Shown here piece by piece: positions 2,754-9,756 of a DNA stretch of 9,756 bases; within the stretch, counting starts at the first letter, position 1; each line of letters starts with the position of its first letter. Both the position numbers and the translations under genes were made by a program. Under the pieces are notes generated by a model, which worked only from the letters and a program-made list of their open reading frames with translations, was not told the origin of the DNA and searched no databases. The DNA is taken from positions 1 through 9,756 of the IMG/VR virus record IMGVR_UViG_3300029878_000054; one strand, given 5' to 3'. This DNA comes from a virus (lineage: Duplodnaviria; Heunggongvirae; Uroviricota; Caudoviricetes).

Positions 2754-3851
2754 ATGAAAAAATTAACAGTGGCAATTTCTGCTGTAGCTGCATCAGTACT
2801 GATGGCGATGTCTGCTCAGGCAGCTGAAATTTATAATAAAGACAGTAACAAGCTGGATCTGTACGGGAAAGTTAATGCCAAGCACTACTTCTCCTCTAAT
2901 GATGCAGATGATGGTGATACTACTTATGCCCGTCTTGGCTTCAAAGGTGAAACCCAAATCAACGATCAACTGACTGGTTTCGGTCAGTGGGAATATGAAT
3001 TCAAAGGCAACCGCGCTGAATCTCAAGGTTCCTCCAAAGACAAAACCCGTCTTGCATTTGCAGGCCTGAAATTCGGTGACTACGGCTCAATCGATTACGG
3101 CCGTAACTACGGTGTAGCATACGACATCGGTGCGTGGACTGACGTTCTGCCAGAATTCGGTGGCGATACCTGGACCCAAACAGATGTGTTCATGACTGGT
3201 CGCACCACTGGTGTTGCAACCTATCGTAACAACGACTTCTTTGGTCTGGTTGATGGTCTGAACTTTGCTGCTCAGTACCAAGGCAAAAACGATCGTAGCG
3301 ATTTCGATAACTACACTGAAGGTAACGGTGATGGCTTCGGTTTCTCTGCTACCTATGAATACGAAGGATTCGGTATCGGTGCAACTTATGCGAAATCTGA
3401 TCGTACCGACACTCAAGTTAATGCAGGGAAAGTTCTTCCTGAAGTATTTGCTTCCGGTAAAAATGCAGAAGTTTGGGCCGCAGGTCTGAAATATGACGCT
3501 AACAACATTTACCTGGCCACTACCTATTCTGAAACCCAGAATATGACTGTATTTGCTGATCACTTCGTTGCTAATAAAGCCCAAAACTTCGAAGCTGTTG
3601 CACAATATCAGTTCGATTTCGGTCTGCGTCCGTCCGTTGCTTACCTGCAATCTAAAGGTAAAGATCTTGGAGTATGGGGCGATCAGGACTTAGTCAAATA
3701 TGTTGATGTAGGTGCAACCTATTACTTCAACAAAAATATGTCTACTTTCGTTGATTACAAAATCAACCTGCTTGACAAAAATGACTTCACTAAAGCACTC
3801 GGTGTAAGCACTGATGACATCGTTGCTGTAGGTCTGGTTTACCAGTTCTAA
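2754..3851 (+). CDS. nmpC: General-diffusion outer-membrane porin, NmpC/OmpD type (OmpC/OmpF/PhoE family), 365 aa, apparently intact
   Basis: Signal peptide ending AQA, then AEIYNKD; porin-family sequence throughout; C-terminal ...VGLVYQF with terminal Phe. High-expression-style codon usage. It sits between Q and the lysis cassette on the opposite strand, as nmpC does in DLP12. Confidence 0.93.
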
Positions 3852-4646: not shown

Positions 4647-5009
4647 TCATTCATTCCCCATTTCGGTGATGGTCAGTTCCAGCCTCCCACCTTTGGTAAC
4701 GGGCATCTTCACAACGCGGTAATCAACGACCTGAGCATCATCCAGCCAGAAACCTGCTTTAGTGAGTGCGTCAAAAGCGGCTTTTTGCAGATTATCCAGG
4801 TCACGGCGACGGCGATCCGGCATGTGGCACTCAATGCGGATTTTCACAGGCATAGCCAGGCCGATATCCAGCATTGCGTTTTTAATGATTCGGGCGACGT
4901 TATCGCGGTATGCCTGCCCCTCTGCGCTGATGTGCGTGCGCCCGCGATTATGGCGGTAATAGCGATTATTGCTCGGAGGCCAGGGTAATGTGATGCTGTA
5001 GGTATTCAC
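4647..5009 (-). CDS. rusA: Crossover-junction endodeoxyribonuclease RusA (Holliday-junction resolvase), 120 aa
   Basis: [26 protein letters not shown]...[51 protein letters not shown] is essentially the K-12 RusA sequence as I recall it; the start overlaps the ybcO stop (ATGA). Confidence 0.95.
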
Positions 5010-5296
5010 GCCTTAATAACCCCCTCTTTCAGCCAGATAACCTGTGTTCTCGCCATACCTTCCAGCGCACATTCTTTTGCATATGCAGCATCGACAAAAT
5101 GTGTGCGGCGGTCGATTTCGTCGTGGCAGGCAGAACATGCAATGGTGGCAATCAGGTCTGGCGGTTTGATACCGGTACCGCACAATCCAGCCAGCCGGAT
5201 ATGTGCCAGTACAGACGTTTCAGGGTTGCCATTACATACGCCAGGGATTCTTACCTGGCATTCCCGACCACGCGCTGCTTTTCTCAAATCAGCCAT
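5006..5296 (-). CDS. ybcO: YbcO-family protein (DUF1364, Cys-rich putative nuclease of lambdoid nin regions), 96 aa
   Basis: [62 protein letters not shown]... with a strong SD (AGGAGG) before the ATG at 5296; the ORF-track extension to 5335 uses a TTG and is rejected. Confidence 0.85.
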
Positions 5297-5459
5297 GACT
5301 CCTCCTTGCTGCCAGTCGCAACCATTTTTTATCAACCAAGCTGGCGGTATATCCGAGCAGTGTTGGTATTTCGGAAGGCTTCAGCTCAGGTTTACGCTTA
5401 CGACGATTTGGTACTCTGTAAATGTGCCCGTTCATGACACGAATAAGCGGTGTAGCCAT
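5289..5459 (-). CDS. ninE: NinE-family small protein, 56 aa
   Basis: Hand translation gives [56 protein letters not shown]-stop, with the basic KRKP...WLR pattern of lambda NinE. The start shares one nucleotide with the ybcN stop and the end overlaps the ybcO start by 8 nt. Not in the ORF track because of its size. Confidence 0.6.
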   Translation of the reverse strand: MATPLIRVMNGHIYRVPNRRKRKPELKPSEIPTLLGYTASLVDKKWLRLAARRSHG

Positions 5460-5914
5460 TACGCCTCCTGCTTGTCGCGCAGCAGCTGGAACTCGCAGCT
5501 CTGCGGAATAGTCAGGTGGCAGCCAATATTCATCGCCCAGGCTTCAACCTTACACAGGAAGACATACATCTCTCCGGTATCAAGATCGGAGGTATGGCGT
5601 AACGACTGGATAGTAGTGATTTCGCCGGTTACGACATCAACCAAGTCCTTGGTTTCATAACCGAGGTATGTGTGTTTGAGTGCATCTTTTACCCATACTG
5701 CAGTAGCGAACGTTTTCCCCCTGCTGATGAGGTACTCGCTGATTTCGCTGTACCACATGTGGCTGAGTGCATTCTGGGAAAGACTGCGTCTCTCGCGCCA
5801 CGGTTTAAGCACCATGCGAAAGCATTTTCCGTCCTCCAGATAAGGCTGGATCTGCTGACCGATAGTGGTGAAGTTACCGCGATGTAATTTGATGCCGTCT
5901 TGTGGGAGGTTCAC
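5459..5914 (-). CDS. ybcN: NinB/Orf-family recombination protein (DLP12 YbcN-like), 151 aa, GTG start
   Basis: Contains the [12 protein letters not shown] motif characteristic of NinB-family proteins; GGAGGTG sits 4-10 nt upstream of the GTG at 5914-5912. Confidence 0.85.
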
Positions 5915-6012
5915 GCTTCACCTCCGCAGAGGTCAAACGTTGGATGCAAAGAATCGCAGGTGCATTTCTGCATCTGTGAAGGGAGAAGAGAGTTTAGATT
6001 GTATGTGCGCAT
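5911..6012 (-). CDS. Small ORF (33 aa) upstream of and overlapping the ybcN start, at the position of ylcH in DLP12
   Basis: Minus-strand hand translation gives [33 protein letters not shown]-stop; its TGA overlaps the ybcN GTG (GTGA). Length equals K-12 ylcH (33 aa) as I recall, but the sequence identity is not verified. Confidence 0.35.
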
Positions 6013-6301
6013 AAACGTCCCCGTTTAGCGCAGAAGTCACCGGAGGTGTTCAGGCTCCGATGCGATAATTATGACGATCTGATTTTGGAAAATCAAATTT
6101 AAGTAACCGCCAACCTATAATTTTCAATCAAGATTTCATTTATTAGCTCACTCATATAAAAATACATTACAACGTTTTTATCTCTTAATTTATGAAGGCA
6201 ACCTCGAAAAACAAATCACCCAAACACTTTAAAACAATTAAACCCGTTTAAAATTACAATTACATTTAGAAAGCAAACTTTCAAAAGATGTGATGATACA
6301 A

Positions 6302-6330
6302 TTGCATAAAACAAATACTTGGGGTAAAAT
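6302..6330 (+). promoter_or_regulatory. Candidate sigma70 promoter for the AT-rich cargo operon (TTGCAT-N17-TAAAAT)
   Basis: -35-like TTGCAT at 6302-6307 and -10-like TAAAAT at 6325-6330 with 17-nt spacing, about 100 nt upstream of the first ATG of the island. AT-rich DNA generates such matches easily, hence low confidence. Confidence 0.3.
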
Positions 6331-6436
6331 ATAAAAATAACACTCCCAGCTTAACGCTAGGTGGCGGTAGCGTGTATTTTTCAAATACGCCTATCACCCC
6401 ATTATGTTTTTTCATATTTAAGAGATTGGTTATATA

Positions 6437-6811
6437 ATGGAACTAATATACACTTATATCCACAATTATAAAGGTTTAAATAAGCTGTCCCTCCCCACCT
6501 CAAGTAAATTTACCTTTAGCCATAAAGGTAACGTCCTTACAATTGCTAAGAAAGATTTAAGTCGTGACTATTATAGCAATATTCCCTGTACATTAATTTT
6601 AGGGAAAAATGGTGTTGGAAAGTCATCAATTTTAGATTTCATTAGTAGCTTTATTTACGATTTTGAAGGTAGCGGTTATAGCATCTGGAATGAAAATGAT
6701 AAACTTATAATTATCACAAGCAATTGCAAACCTCCTGTAATATTATCCAAAATGCAAACGGAACTGATTGATAATAATGAACATTTTTTAGAAGAAACAA
6801 AATCAATCTAA
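6437..6811 (+). CDS. N-terminal portion of an ABC/AAA15-type ATPase (Walker A only); probably the 5' half of a gene split by a frameshift
   Basis: P-loop LILGKNGVGKSSILD at residues ~53-67; no Walker B, signature or H-loop motif in this ORF. The frame ends at 6811, 31 nt after the downstream frame opens. Confidence 0.7.
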   Translation: MELIYTYIHNYKGLNKLSLPTSSKFTFSHKGNVLTIAKKDLSRDYYSNIPCTLILGKNGVGKSSILDFISSFIYDFEGSGYSIWNENDKLIIITSNCKPPVILSKMQTELIDNNEHFLEETKSI

Positions 6812-6843
6812 TAAAGATAAATAACACAATCGACCTCAAAAGT

Positions 6844-8223
6844 ATGTTAGTTGGACAAAAAAAGAAAAAAAACGATTCGATTTCTAAAGATTTATCACTG
6901 TCATATTTTTTGCAAGGCAGTAAAACACGCAATAAGAAATTACTCAAGCAATTAATTTCATTTTCAGACCACAGTTCATGGGCTAAAGACAATTTATCAA
7001 GACTTAATACTAAATTTCAATTTGAAATAGAAAACTCACCAGTATATAAAATAAATTCTATTATAAAAAACAATGATATTGGTGACAAAGGACTTTTTGG
7101 AGCTATTGAATACTTTTTTGATACGTTGAATGATAGAATTAAAAACAATAAACTCCCTAGATATATTGAACGTGATTTAGATTCTTTAGGTATTTCACTT
7201 GTGGATATACTCAATCATGGGATAGATTACGATGAAGATTTTATTATTAGCATTATTTTTAACAAAGAAAGATCATTAAATTTCCTCGCAACCTTTTCAT
7301 ATCACAAAATAATTTACTTGATGCTTTTGCCTGCAATAACATGGCATTTACTCAAGACATCAAAAATCCCTAAAGACATATGTGAGACTGTTTATTTATT
7401 TTGCTTGTGTCGCGCGTATCTTGAAGAAAAAGATCCAGCAAAAACTATATTAGAGACTTTAGATGAATTTAACGTTAATGTTAAATTTCAGTCAAAAATA
7501 GAAATGTTATCTGAACATATCTCCGACATTATAGGTAATATAGCTGATATATTAGAAAACACAGCAAGAGACCCAGTTGATAGTTTATCTTTCACAGTTG
7601 AAGAACCAAAGCAGATTATGGAGTTAATAAGATTAGTTGATAGGTTACCAAATGGCGTATCATCGCGATTTAAGTATGGTTGGGATTCACTTAGTTCAGG
7701 AGAGTTTGCAAAATTAAACCTTTTCAATCAACTTTATGATTCTATAGAACATAGCAACAGCAAAAATATTATAATATTATTAGATGAGTGTGATTTATAT
7801 CTACACCCTGAATGGCAACGAGTTATTTTTTCAGAAATTATAGATTTAACATTAAGATATAAACAAAGTAAAAATATTCAATTAGTATTTACAACTCACT
7901 CCCCTATACTCGCAAGTGATTTTTTGCCATCAGATATAATATATCTTGAAAGAGATCATAATCAAGGAACCTATACTAAGAAAGTAGAGTTTGGTTTCGG
8001 AGCAACCATATCAGAATTATATATAAATGGTTTTTTTATTGATGCTACAATAGGACAGCACGCACATAATTATCTAAACTCAATAATAAAAAACTCAGAT
8101 GACGGTAATTTAAATAAACATCAAAAAACCATACTATCACAAATTAAAAATAAACTTCTCATAAATCTTATTGATCTGAAGTTAAACAAAAACAATGATA
8201 AAACAGATTCTTTTGAGAAATGA
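6844..8223 (+). CDS. C-terminal portion of the same ABC/AAA15-type ATPase (signature, Walker B and H-loop motifs); a fused model 6437..8223 gives ~595 aa if one T is added to the T6 run at 6784-6789
   Basis: LSSGE signature-like motif, Walker B IIILLDECDLYLHP and H-loop VFTTHSP; no Walker A. The frame is open upstream to 6781 with no ATG before 6844. Confidence 0.7.
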   Translation: MLVGQKKKKNDSISKDLSLSYFLQGSKTRNKKLLKQLISFSDHSSWAKDNLSRLNTKFQFEIENSPVYKINSIIKNNDIGDKGLFGAIEYFFDTLNDRIKNNKLPRYIERDLDSLGISLVDILNHGIDYDEDFIISIIFNKERSLNFLATFSYHKIIYLMLLPAITWHLLKTSKIPKDICETVYLFCLCRAYLEEKDPAKTILETLDEFNVNVKFQSKIEMLSEHISDIIGNIADILENTARDPVDSLSFTVEEPKQIMELIRLVDRLPNGVSSRFKYGWDSLSSGEFAKLNLFNQLYDSIEHSNSKNIIILLDECDLYLHPEWQRVIFSEIIDLTLRYKQSKNIQLVFTTHSPILASDFLPSDIIYLERDHNQGTYTKKVEFGFGATISELYINGFFIDATIGQHAHNYLNSIIKNSDDGNLNKHQKTILSQIKNKLLINLIDLKLNKNNDKTDSFEK

Positions 8224-8741
8224 GTAAAAAAATGATAAAAATAAACAAAGACTTCAATGTTGATGTAAAAATATCCTTTTCTAAAATAGTAAGCAAAGTT
8301 AATAAACGCGTGAAGCAGAGGAAGTTACTGAACATTACTCCCGATGAAGTAGAGTTTCTAAATACAATCAACAAAAAAACTATCAGAAAATTAGTTTTTT
8401 CAAAACCCAAACGATTAAAAAATATAATCATCAAAATATACAACAAACACCCAATTGTGTGTGAGTACTATTCTCCTGATTATTTTTTAAGGCACTTAAA
8501 TTTACAACCATTAACAAACCTACAATTACCTTTAAAAACAAAAGAAAACAAAAAAATAGTTTATAATGAACTAGCACATGCCATCAAAATAATCACATCT
8601 TTCTCTCAAACTACACAAAGCCTAATACTTGAGGATATATTAAATACACATTTCTCACCACAAAAATTATCTAGTTTAAGAGATAAGATTCTTAATCTTA
8701 TAAGTATCAAGAATGGTGGTCCTAAAGGAAAATACCATTAA
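8220..8741 (+). CDS. Hypothetical lysine-rich basic protein, 173 aa, unknown function
   Basis: ORF whose ATG overlaps the stop of the ATPase ORF (ATGA); no recognisable catalytic motif. An alternative start at 8232 (MIKINK) is possible. Same extreme AT-richness as its neighbours. Confidence 0.5.
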   Translation: MSKKMIKINKDFNVDVKISFSKIVSKVNKRVKQRKLLNITPDEVEFLNTINKKTIRKLVFSKPKRLKNIIIKIYNKHPIVCEYYSPDYFLRHLNLQPLTNLQLPLKTKENKKIVYNELAHAIKIITSFSQTTQSLILEDILNTHFSPQKLSSLRDKILNLISIKNGGPKGKYH

Positions 8742-9423
8742 GTTATTTCCATCATGGGTTAAAAATATTTCTGAAATATTTAAATACTCACTTATTGATA
8801 GAGAAACAGCGTATCAATTGAACAGTTTTTTAGACATTAGCATATGCCCATATTGCAACAGTGAAGAAATTGAACAAGTAGAAGACCATACAGGTACTAG
8901 CTACAGGCCAGCATTTGATCATTTCATACCTAAGTACAAATATCCGTTGATCTCCTTTAGTTTATTTAACTTAATTCCTAGCTGCACTAAATGCAATAGT
9001 ACTTATAAAAAATCACTCGATCCGATCATGAGCCCATTTTCAAATCCTTTTCTTGAAGGTGTAAATGACACTCAGCTTTTTGATTTTAATTATGACATTG
9101 ATTATATATATAGAGATGGCCAAATTGATGATGATCACATTCAAATTATACTAAAAAAACAAAAAAACAACATCGATGAAAACATGGCTAAACTTAGCAT
9201 AGAGAATAGATATAATTCACGCATTAGAAAGAAAGCAGTTAGATTAATTGCAAAGAGAGCATTTGATCTAAAAGCTTATGAAGAAAATTTCATTATAGAA
9301 CCAACTCTTTTCGCTACTTTCGGTTACGAGACTAACATTGAGCCGCTAAAGCATATGCATAAAAAACTTACTCAAGATGCAATATTAGTATTCTGCAACA
9401 AACAAGTACCGTTAATTGAATAA
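8713..9423 (+). CDS. HNH (His-Me finger) endonuclease-domain protein, 236 aa
   Basis: CPYC ... (22 aa) ... DHFIP ... NLIPS ... CTKCN, i.e. the CxxC / DH / N / CxxC arrangement typical of HNH nucleases, in the N-terminal half. The start overlaps the preceding ORF by 29 nt. Confidence 0.7.
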   Translation: MVVLKENTIKLFPSWVKNISEIFKYSLIDRETAYQLNSFLDISICPYCNSEEIEQVEDHTGTSYRPAFDHFIPKYKYPLISFSLFNLIPSCTKCNSTYKKSLDPIMSPFSNPFLEGVNDTQLFDFNYDIDYIYRDGQIDDDHIQIILKKQKNNIDENMAKLSIENRYNSRIRKKAVRLIAKRAFDLKAYEENFIIEPTLFATFGYETNIEPLKHMHKKLTQDAILVFCNKQVPLIE

Positions 9424-9680
9424 GTAAAATGAAAGGATATCGAGCTATATAATGTAGTATGTCGAAAAATCAAACAGAAAAAAATCGAATAGTTACACTG
9501 TGCTCGGTGCTGTCTTCATGCTCCGTTCCTCTCGTAGGCTAGTAAAATTCGCGTCATCACCGGGCTTGGGGGCCATCATCGAAAATCTGATTGGTGCTTT
9601 TGTGCCAAGAGATTTCCTCTTCGGTTACCAATCGGTAGTGAATCGTTCGCTAGATATTGCTGACATCGACCAGATCGCCC

Positions 9681-9756
9681 TGATCTTACCCAGCAATAGT
9701 GGACACGCGGCTAAGTGAGTAAACTCTCAGTCAGAGGTGACTCACATGACAAAAAC
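9681..9756 (+). mobile_element. Left end of an IS3-type insertion sequence (terminal inverted repeat starting TGATCTTACCCAGCAATAGTGGACACGCGG), continuing off the right edge
   Basis: The sequence from 9681 matches what I recall as the IS3 left end, including the GAGGTGA SD and the ATG at 9736 that begins orfA (MTK...). Confidence 0.75.
9736..9756 (+). CDS. insE: IS3 OrfA (transposase N-terminal subunit), first 7 codons only (partial at window edge)
   Basis: ATG ACA AAA AC... preceded by GAGGTGA 8 nt upstream, consistent with the IS3 orfA start MTKTVS... Confidence 0.6.

Follow-up and report, generated by a model that had tools for sequence, protein, structure and literature searches.

The window analysed here, a stretch of 9,756 nucleotides from a virus record of the class Caudoviricetes (IMGVR_UViG_3300029878_000054), contains an AT-rich island beside a run of phage genes (table). 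The G+C content is 0.25-0.33 in each 300-nt interval from ~6000 to 9450, against 0.44-0.55 in the left flank (4650-6000) and 0.39-0.46 in the right, in line with an earlier note, made from the sequence alone, that had placed such an island (roughly 25-30% G+C by eye, flanks ~50%) at 6085-9480. The unit common to other genera slightly exceeds the AT-rich stretch, running by blastn from ~6098 to 9601-9674. All ORFs of the island are on the plus strand, at 6437-6811 (124 aa), 6844-8223 (459 aa), 8220-8741 (173 aa) and 8713-9423 (236 aa), and the minus strand carries the phage genes ybcN, ninE, ybcO, rusA and quuD, so that the opposed orientation of four island ORFs and phage backbone that the note had described is seen in the ORF list.

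Features of the window around and within the AT-rich island
Feature	Position	Strand	Content	Basis
Phage backbone, left	5459-6097	-	ybcN (ninB homologue, 5459-5914), 33-aa hypothetical ORF (5911-6012), ~85 nt more	RefSeq annotation of near-identical loci
Leader	6098-6436	+	non-coding, AT-rich, travels with the cassette	alignment to Morganella and Serratia
PtuA-like ABC ATPase gene, disrupted	6437-8223	+	PDC-M62A; intact 595 aa	profile, PDB and structure matches
Long PtuB-like HNH nuclease gene, disrupted	8220-9423	+	PDC-M62B; 397 aa, or 401 aa from the ATG at 8220	
Downstream segment	9424-9680	+	near-normal G+C, co-inherited with the cassette	blastn, alignment A4
IS3 left end	9681-9756	+		100% identity to K-12 IS3 end

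The same island occurs in six complete Escherichia coli genomes at 99.3-99.9% identity, three of which carry two intact genes encoding an ATPase of 595 aa and an HNH protein of 397 aa. Alignment to these six loci bears out the earlier suspicion of a frameshift splitting the ATPase: a 1-nt deletion in the window (T7 to T6, at 6784-6789) separates the first ORF, with the Walker A part, from the second, with the signature, Walker B and H-loop part. The HNH gene has likewise lost 2 nt (TTT to T, at ~8722-8723), leaving the N-terminal helical domain in the third ORF and the HNH and C-terminal helical domains in the fourth. A further length difference, A8 to A7 at 8226, is harmless, the A7 variant being a common natural allele that gives a 401-aa nuclease, the intact parent of the fragments, present on 92 contigs. 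The ATPase and nuclease genes are separated by 9 nt in one intact E. coli locus (L001). Both elements of the tight packing described earlier are present, an ATGA overlap at 8220 and one of 29 nt at 8713-8741, but the latter is the product of the 2-nt deletion within one gene. Similarly, the 173-aa “basic protein”, previously taken for a separate gene, is the HNH protein's own N-terminal domain, and this protein is a single ORF of 397 or 401 aa in the near-identical E. coli loci. The exact fragment products of 124, 459, 173 and 236 aa are found on 49, 32, 28 and 41 public contigs, respectively, indicating that the form in the window is a real lineage allele, and at least three independent inactivating frameshifts are seen across E. 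coli lineages. The cassette in the window is a pseudogene pair.

The translation of the ATPase contains a Walker A motif (GKNGVGKSS), a signature motif (LSSGE), a Walker B motif (IIILLDECD) and an H-loop (TTHSP), and in an alignment of 44 homologues the residues G56, N58, G61, K62, S420, G422, D450, E451, H488, S489 and P490 are invariant or nearly so. In all four motifs the intact protein has the make-up of the ABC-type ATPase PtuA. A search of the AAA_15 and AAA_21 families, as the earlier note had proposed, returned matches for the ATPase. Against the PDC-M62A profile PDLC04734 the intact ATPase is matched over residues 1-570 (profile positions 1-548 of 597; E 4e-44), and the two fragments in the window match the N-terminal and C-terminal parts of the same M62A profiles. 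PADLOC profiles for PtuA match to E 5e-19, in the C-terminal half only, and PtuA chains in the PDB at E 3e-7 to 7e-7. The AF2 model (pLDDT 81.5) has retron I-A PtuA and Septu PtuA as its top Foldseek matches (E 1e-9); for the PtuA chains the Foldseek probability is 1.0, yet the TM-scores are only 0.25-0.35.

The nuclease carries an HNH motif with two CxxC pairs (CPYCN...DHFIPK...NLIPSCTKCN), within which C206, C209, D230, H231, N247, C255 and N256 are invariant or nearly so in homologues. All of the ATPase and HNH motifs listed in the earlier note were thus found in the translations and are conserved. The intact 397-aa protein matches the M62B profiles PDLC04743 (E 1.5e-33) and PDLC04741 (E 9e-26, residues 1-347 on profile positions 1-323 of 401). 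PADLOC HMMs for PtuB give a partial match (E ~1e-8), and the remaining likeness to PtuB is one of fold, comprising a predicted beta-beta-alpha-metal HNH domain and a helical C-terminal domain of the PtuA-docking type. The structural comparison with PtuA and PtuB suggested in the earlier note succeeded for the ATPase, as above, but the whole-chain nuclease model retrieved nothing with Foldseek. The family profile did not reach PtuB among PDB sequences, giving chance prefoldin matches only; phmmer gave one chance match, and tblastn with the nuclease found one weak phage match and, on plasmids, matches to the HNH core only. Ahead of the HNH domain lies a helical domain of ~150-185 aa, beyond canonical PtuB, which is also present in those relatives, chiefly Gammaproteobacteria with some Bacteroidota and Firmicutes, that match the family profile from its start. 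No known counterpart of this domain was found, suggesting that trigger and regulation may differ from those of Septu.

Homologues of the nuclease in seven other enterobacterial genera (43-84% identity) and in Enterovibrio (31% identity) are single ORFs. A two-gene operon with the ATPase first and no other obligatory component is found in the intact E. coli loci, in eight other genera and in 78 of 80 species-level relatives, and none of the 80 has a gene between the two. This, together with the fused ORF in homologues and the fact that the family is already catalogued, speaks against the undescribed Septu variant with an additional gene that the earlier note had envisaged. The island is an ordinary two-gene cassette of ATPase and HNH nuclease, belonging to the Septu family and damaged by frameshifts, and not a new multi-gene system.

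The carrier is a defective lambda-like prophage of E. coli (DLP12/lambda-like), and the cassette is a moron in the slot from P to ninB/ybcN, which agrees with the earlier description of the island as prophage cargo placed between replication and nin genes. In the DLP12 prophage of K-12 (KLY), positions 6199-6396 of the locus (L012) match window positions 5900-6097 at 91% by blastn before homology stops, marking the left edge of the cargo slot, which in K-12 contains ybcM-ybcL-ybcK-ylcJ-emrE. The right flank (9480-9680) does not resemble the ren region of K-12, and megablast of the island against deposited phage genomes gave no match. Prophages of Enterobacter and Pantoea hold the cassette in this same slot, flanked by P and the nin-region/Q genes and again encoded on the strand opposite to the phage genes. 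In Morganella it has another prophage location, and in Serratia, Enterovibrio and Atlantibacter it lies outside phage sequence, a distribution consistent with a module that moves autonomously. Its G+C content is ~30%, against 50-60% in its hosts.

The segment downstream of the nuclease gene is shared to 9674 in Serratia and to 9601 in Morganella; within it, no ORF or RNA family could be assigned, there being no long minus-strand ORF and no Rfam match above noise. After ~9682 the window departs from the six E. coli loci, and 9680-9756 is 100% identical to the end of K-12 IS3, matching an annotated IS3 family transposase. The element is inserted immediately past the cassette and takes the place of the stretch that in intact prophages connects to replication gene P. 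This junction occurs in no complete genome of the collection. Decay of the prophage as a whole is evident from the IS3 insertion, together with a rearranged left end. Because frameshifts split both genes and the prophage is decaying, the copy in the window is most likely non-functional, and the earlier reading of it as a defence module probably does not hold for this copy.

The leader is conserved together with the genes, 6097-6436 being 74% identical to the Morganella locus and 6185-6436 75% identical to that of Serratia. It includes a promoter-like pair, TTGCAT (6302-6307) and TAAAAT (6325-6330) with a 17-nt spacer, conserved in an alignment of six genera, and an invariant 14-mer, GGTGGCGGTAGCGT, at 6360-6373, 63 nt upstream of the ATPase start codon, identified in the same alignment and when all loci were scanned for the motif. 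Relatives of ~30% identity lack this 14-mer near the start of the ATPase gene, so it is not a family-wide feature. Transcription of the cassette probably starts at this conserved promoter of its own and runs counter to the early-right operon of the phage. The basis for calling a promoter is this conservation, since a generic promoter and terminator scan, which is uninformative in AT-rich DNA, returned 24 promoter-like sites against 20.6 +/- 4.4 in shuffled sequences. A structured leader RNA or retron-like ncRNA was considered and rejected (RNAalifold -1.97 kcal/mol, six pairs, essentially no covariation). Rfam, scanned over the window with an E-value threshold, gave one chance-level snoRNA match outside the island, and ARAGORN predicted neither tRNA nor tmRNA.

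We consider it very probable that the locus is a horizontally acquired, prophage-borne two-gene cassette of the Septu family in its long form (PDC-M62), inactivated in the window. Taken at face value, the four ORFs with tight or overlapping junctions, the last of them (236 aa) about the size of canonical PtuB (210-234 aa), would suggest a working three- or four-gene Septu variant with the 173-aa product as a third component and a naturally split ATPase. However, the near-identical loci contain a single ORF for the ATPase and a single one for the nuclease, the ORF junctions fall at the 1-nt and 2-nt deletions that are peculiar to the window allele, the intervening gene is absent from all 80 related loci, AF2 folds the 397-aa protein as a single unit (pTM 0.80), and parting Walker A from the signature and Walker B motifs leaves neither piece with a nucleotide-binding site. 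The multi-gene reading is largely refuted, and we give it hardly any credence. It is also very unlikely that the frameshifts are sequencing or assembly errors in a strain that truly carries the intact two-gene system. The ATPase deletion does sit in a homopolymer, as does the A8 to A7 difference, and homopolymer length varies in other assemblies of the island; but the exact fragment products recur on the contigs counted above, which come from several sources and point to independent assemblies of one lineage, the A7 form is a common natural allele, the loss of 2 nt from a run of only three T is untypical of homopolymer error, and there are no similar within-gene indels in the rest of the window. 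As for a reversible ON/OFF switch, in which recoding by -1 ribosomal or transcriptional slippage supplies traces of a toxic system, the ATPase lesion creates the heptamer U_UUU_UUA (CA-T-TTT-TTA) in the correct frame, at which slippage by -1 would re-establish the ORF with EHFLRRNK in place of EHFFRRNK, and the A7/A8 runs vary in other lineages. The nuclease lesion, however, lies outside any slippery tract, recoding there would have to proceed by an unfavourable +1 shift, and the alleles appear clonally fixed rather than variable within a lineage, making a switch extremely improbable.

Whether the intact cassette serves primarily against phages is a separate matter. The repeated inactivation in E. 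coli lineages is compatible with a burden on the host, expression of PtuAB in the absence of its retron partner is toxic (PMC12640716), the cassette moves alone between unrelated sites, and a phage-challenge test of a PDC-M62 member or of the enterobacterial clade was not found in the searchable literature; these points would suit a selfish addiction or toxin module, or a nuclease that serves the phage by acting on host or competitor DNA at induction. Against this, the characterised relatives (Septu, retron I-A PtuAB and PARIS AriA) are all anti-phage effectors (PMC13096335), PDC-M62 was defined from copies embedded in BREX, DISARM or type I RM loci, an orientation against the lytic operon with a predicted promoter of its own is typical of morons expressed in the lysogen, and toxicity is compatible with abortive-infection defence. 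A primarily non-defensive role is in our view very unlikely, and we retain the Septu-family defence cassette as the preferred reading.

In Septu, PtuAB is described as a 6:2 complex with the nuclease inhibited by ATP binding (as summarised in PMC12640716, citing Li et al. [quoted passage not shown] By analogy, the intact ATPase would oligomerise and keep the HNH subunit inactive until a cue from an infecting phage unleashed cleavage of DNA or of a tRNA (tRNA-Tyr, for example); replication of the phage would then halt and growth of the infected cell be sacrificed, protecting the lysogen population and with it the prophage. A more speculative proposal, which we regard as rather doubtful, is that the phage is sensed, or the HNH site gated, by the N-terminal domain of the nuclease and not solely by the ATPase, that GGTGGCGGTAGCGT is a dedicated regulatory site, that the repeated frameshifts reflect selection against a costly, self-toxic effector, and that the cassette represents a mechanistically distinct Septu subtype.

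Two RefSeq proteins, labelled “AAA family ATPase” and “hypothetical protein”, can now be assigned to Septu/PDC-M62, and the P-to-ninB moron slot of lambdoid prophages emerges as one repeatedly occupied by this cassette, in Escherichia, Enterobacter and Pantoea, with separate inactivations in E. coli. The N-terminal domain of the long PtuB, like the motif conserved in the leader, could reveal how stand-alone Septu is triggered or controlled. The locus also highlights the danger that frameshifted AT-rich cargo mimics a novel multi-gene architecture in annotation.

Among known systems, PARIS (AriA/AriB), Gabija (GajA) and OLD share the ABC fold and motifs with the island ATPase, AriA and GajA profiles matching it at E 1e-13 to 1e-17 and AriA appearing in Foldseek, but their nucleases are of the Toprim or DUF4435 type whereas the partner here is an HNH protein; neither protein matches Toprim or DUF4435, and membership of these systems was rejected. 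Unlike the PtuAB of type I-A retrons (Retron-Eco7/Ec78 and Eco4/Ec83), the island has no RT-like ORF and no msr/msd RNA, and its proteins score far under the NCBIfam retron equivalog cut-offs (PtuA 48.5 bits against 500, PtuB 13.9 against 150), arguing against a Retron-Septu; neither protein passes any NCBIfam family. Compared with stand-alone Septu, as solved for an E. coli complex (8EE4/8EE7/8EEA), the island ATPase is longer (595 aa against 465 aa in PtuA), with sequence likeness in the C-terminal half only, and the solved PtuB lacks the N-terminal helical domain of the island nuclease, with which its sequence identity is 11-20%. The closest counterpart is PDC-M62 (M62A and M62B), a PADLOC candidate (Payne et al., bioRxiv 10.1101/2024.01.29.577857) from a set of systems predicted by “guilt by embedding”, the profiles of which match both intact proteins end to end, with agreement in gene order and sizes. 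Homologues in Bacillus cereus are strong members (E 9e-82 and 4e-60), and the enterobacterial clade scores well below them, pointing to a divergent branch, of which the window copy differs further in being frameshifted in both genes. The same Bacillus loci are called PDC-M62 by PADLOC and Septu by DefenseFinder.

The window belongs to a DLP12/lambda-like E. coli prophage, and the four ORFs of its AT-rich island are two broken genes, one for an ATPase and one for an HNH nuclease. The earlier note had described an AT-rich cargo island with plus-strand ORFs and ATPase and nuclease motifs, and this description is correct: G+C content is 25-33% in each 300-nt interval over ~6000-9450 and 44-55% on the left side, the four ORFs are present, and the quoted catalytic motifs occupy columns that stay invariant when 44 homologues of the ATPase and 28 of the nuclease are aligned. 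Further AT-rich dips (G+C 0.29-0.40) occur at 2250-2850, upstream of the porin gene, and at 450-900, around the Iss/Bor lipoprotein gene.

Features of the window
Feature	Position	Strand	Remark
rzpD, rrrD, essD, quuD, ylcG, rusA, ybcO, ninE, ybcN		minus	From annotation of near-identical loci
Repeat-rich ORF (Ala/Ser/Asn/Lys)	133-393	minus	Tail-fibre-fragment-like, at left end
Iss/Bor lipoprotein gene	621-962	plus	Known moron (prophage cargo gene)
Porin gene	2754-3851	plus	Known moron
TTGCAT-N17-TAAAAT	6302-6330		Promoter-like
14-nt block GGTGGCGGTAGCGT	6360-6373		Leader
Island ORFs	6437-6811, 6844-8223, 8220-8741, 8713-9423	plus	Fill the AT-rich stretch
Downstream segment	9424-9680		3' of nuclease stop
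IS3 left end	9681-9756		Abuts cassette at ~9681; includes ATGACAAAAAC, start of first IS3 ORF

The island was found by megablast in only 6 of 5,426 complete E. coli genomes, at 99.3-99.9% identity and in the same prophage slot each time. In TW10828, EC38 and AR_0077 the annotation has two genes here, whose products are a 595-aa AAA family ATPase and a 397-aa hypothetical protein. A column-by-column comparison of seven sequences (the window and the six loci) for length differences revealed three that are confined to the window. At ~6784 a T7 run is short by one T, and the ATPase frame stops after residue 124, the next ORF starting at Met137; at ~8226 an intergenic A8 run is short by one A; and at ~8723 TTT is short by two T, which cuts the second gene into 173-aa and 236-aa ORFs and explains their 29-nt overlap. 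The A7 allele at ~8226 is harmless, bringing an ATG at 8220 in frame to yield a 401-aa nuclease product (MSKK-MIKINK...), which is known from 92 public contigs and otherwise has the same sequence as the two window fragments when these are joined. The extra 173-aa gene and split ATPase, which had been proposed as a new architecture, are thus the product of pseudogenisation, since near-identical loci carry two intact genes. The fragments left by the two disrupting frameshifts are no one-off error, given that the exact 124-, 459-, 173- and 236-aa sequences are present on 49, 32, 28 and 41 contigs, respectively, in NCBI, ENA, JGI and Logan assemblies.

In the window the nucleotide-binding domain of the ATPase is not contiguous and the nuclease is in two pieces, and we therefore expect this copy to be inactive, with the caveat that its 236-aa ORF matches canonical PtuB (the Septu nuclease) in size. 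The T deletion leaves CA-T-TTT-TTA at 6781-6789, whose U_UUU_UUA heptamer is correctly framed for a classic -1 slippery site; a -1 slip there would recover the downstream ATPase frame with one F-to-L change. The heptamer would permit low-level -1 recoding but may be a coincidence. Three ETEC genomes (L002, L003 and L004) share a 1-nt deletion in an A7 run (~8373 equivalent), and their nuclease annotation begins at an internal start, giving a 322-aa form present on 200 contigs; one of the three also has an extra A in an A8 run of the ATPase gene (6864 equivalent) that truncates the ATPase. E. coli lineages have thus inactivated this rare cassette repeatedly, on at least three independent occasions as judged from their differing frameshifts. 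Cassette-bearing prophages also vary in cargo beside the repressor gene (13637-14940 in L005 and 13680-15230 in L006, two of the E. coli loci), with a RexA-family protein and partner in EC38, two hypothetical proteins in AR_0077 and a DUF7946 protein in TW10828. The site resembles a second variable slot of this phage group, probably a defence-related one.

The ancestral state is a single long nuclease gene. Full-length homologues of 396-400 aa (43-84% identity, 99-100% coverage) are present in seven enterobacterial genera (Serratia, Morganella, Enterobacter, Citrobacter, Pantoea, Atlantibacter and Ewingella), and a 401-aa Enterovibrio homologue has 31% identity at 85% coverage. The architecture is one of strict two-gene linkage: in all contexts retrieved, the nuclease gene lies directly 3' of an AAA_15/AAA_21 ATPase gene, whose product is 561-602 aa where complete on the contig. 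An ATPase-alignment scan of one genome per species gave 271 relatives, the best 80 loci of which were searched with alignment-built HMMs; 78 of these 80 have a single nuclease-related ORF of 300-460 aa immediately downstream on the same strand (E 1e-30 to 1e-100), and none has a gene between ATPase and nuclease. AlphaFold2 models the 397-aa nuclease as one unit (pLDDT 85, pTM 0.80) comprising a helical N-terminal domain to ~residue 185, an HNH core at ~206-256 and a helical C-terminal part. A 487-aa ENA protein (P0015) is 89% identical to a portion of the nuclease and also contains Pfam domains of phage replication proteins (PF25888, PF07261); a chimeric gene call or a misassembly on its 2.1-kb contig is the probable cause.

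K-12 DLP12 homology ends at 6097, the K-12 slot being occupied by ybcM-ybcL-ybcK-ylcJ-emrE. The non-coding flanks (6097/6185-6436 and 9424-9601/9674) have 74-76% identity to the Morganella and Serratia loci, indicating that the cassette moves as a ~3.5-kb unit reaching past its AT-rich part. Its setting is moron-like. In Enterobacter and Pantoea it is flanked by lambda P and the nin-region/Q genes and is again encoded on the strand opposite to them, and in Morganella its neighbours are a prophage integrase gene and genes for tail fibres. The Serratia, Enterovibrio and Atlantibacter copies occupy non-phage chromosomal sites, one adjoining an IS3-family transposase. The G+C content of the cassette is ~30% despite hosts of 50-60%, and no close relative was found among the deposited phage genomes or plasmids searched. 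The ~250 nt 3' of the nuclease stop (39-46% G+C) are co-inherited with the cassette in Serratia (76% identity, to 9674) and in Morganella (to 9601), and the sole RefSeq annotation of this segment in intact loci is a 40-aa hypothetical ORF. The window's prophage is degraded, having an IS3 end at ~9681 and departing from the reference prophage (L001) before position 354. Positions 1-353 do not align with L001, which has ylcI and nohD there, and together with the tail-fibre-like ORF this suggests a deletion or rearrangement. Among the 5,426 complete E. coli genomes, none has the IS3-cassette junction. An IS3 also lies close by in K-12 DLP12, where it sits within ren and is oriented the other way.

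The promoter-like element is common to E. coli, Serratia, Morganella, Enterobacter and Pantoea leaders and would put transcription start near 6337, and a generic promoter scan did not distinguish it from AT-rich background. The 14-nt block is invariant or one base off in six genera (L001 7276; Serratia L007 6129; Morganella L013 4163; and loci L016 4125, L018 4134 and L020 4124) and lies 62-78 nt 5' of the ATPase start codon in a leader otherwise ~58% conserved. It is missing near the ATPase start in ~30%-identity relatives, and no conserved RNA structure was detected in the leader. The block is a putative operator or other protein-binding site.

The intact ATPase and nuclease match the PADLOC profiles PDC-M62A (E 4e-44) and PDC-M62B (E 1.5e-33 and 9e-26), respectively, end to end, PDC-M01, PtuA/PtuB, AriA and GajA matches being weaker and partial. 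PDC systems are computational candidates, derived from genes lying within loci of the BREX, DISARM or type I RM kind and included in PADLOC with no functional testing (10.1101/2024.01.29.577857). In the Bacillus cereus group, PADLOC Septu and PDC-M62 calls coincide at loci 203 times, and supplementary tables list identical protein pairs as Septu (DefenseFinder) and PDC-M62 (PADLOC) (PMC11811056); the Bacillus homologues found in this analysis are strong PDC-M62 members. Among solved structures, phmmer matched the ATPase only to PtuA chains (retron I-A, Ec83 and E. coli Septu 8ee4) and then OLD nuclease, and Foldseek ranked retron I-A PtuA top for the ATPase model (pLDDT 81.5; E 1.3e-9), followed by AriA and E. 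coli Septu PtuA, with TM-scores that are low because of a long helical insertion. No reverse transcriptase, retron RNA or Toprim domain was found in the island. Together these results bear out the Septu-like assignment of the earlier note, establish fold-level PtuA/PtuB kinship and identify the pair as stand-alone Septu-type, in the long (M62) form.

In E. coli Septu, PtuA and PtuB assemble into a 6:2 complex in which the nuclease is inhibited by ATP, as relayed in PMC12640716. A characterised relative requires its Walker A/B and HNH residues and displays abortive-infection behaviour (PMC13096335), and the PtuA C-terminal extension bundles with the C-terminal helices of PtuB (PMC12819146). Models of the intact ATPase and nuclease both show C-terminal helices, and Septu-like logic is therefore expected in the intact cassette. 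By analogy, its HNH nuclease would be restrained by the ATPase scaffold until released by a phage cue, and the nuclease N-terminal domain may provide an additional sensing or gating layer. This domain, which is what had been taken as a separate gene, has no counterpart in solved PtuB structures, and the locus represents a new, inactivated member of an already catalogued kind.
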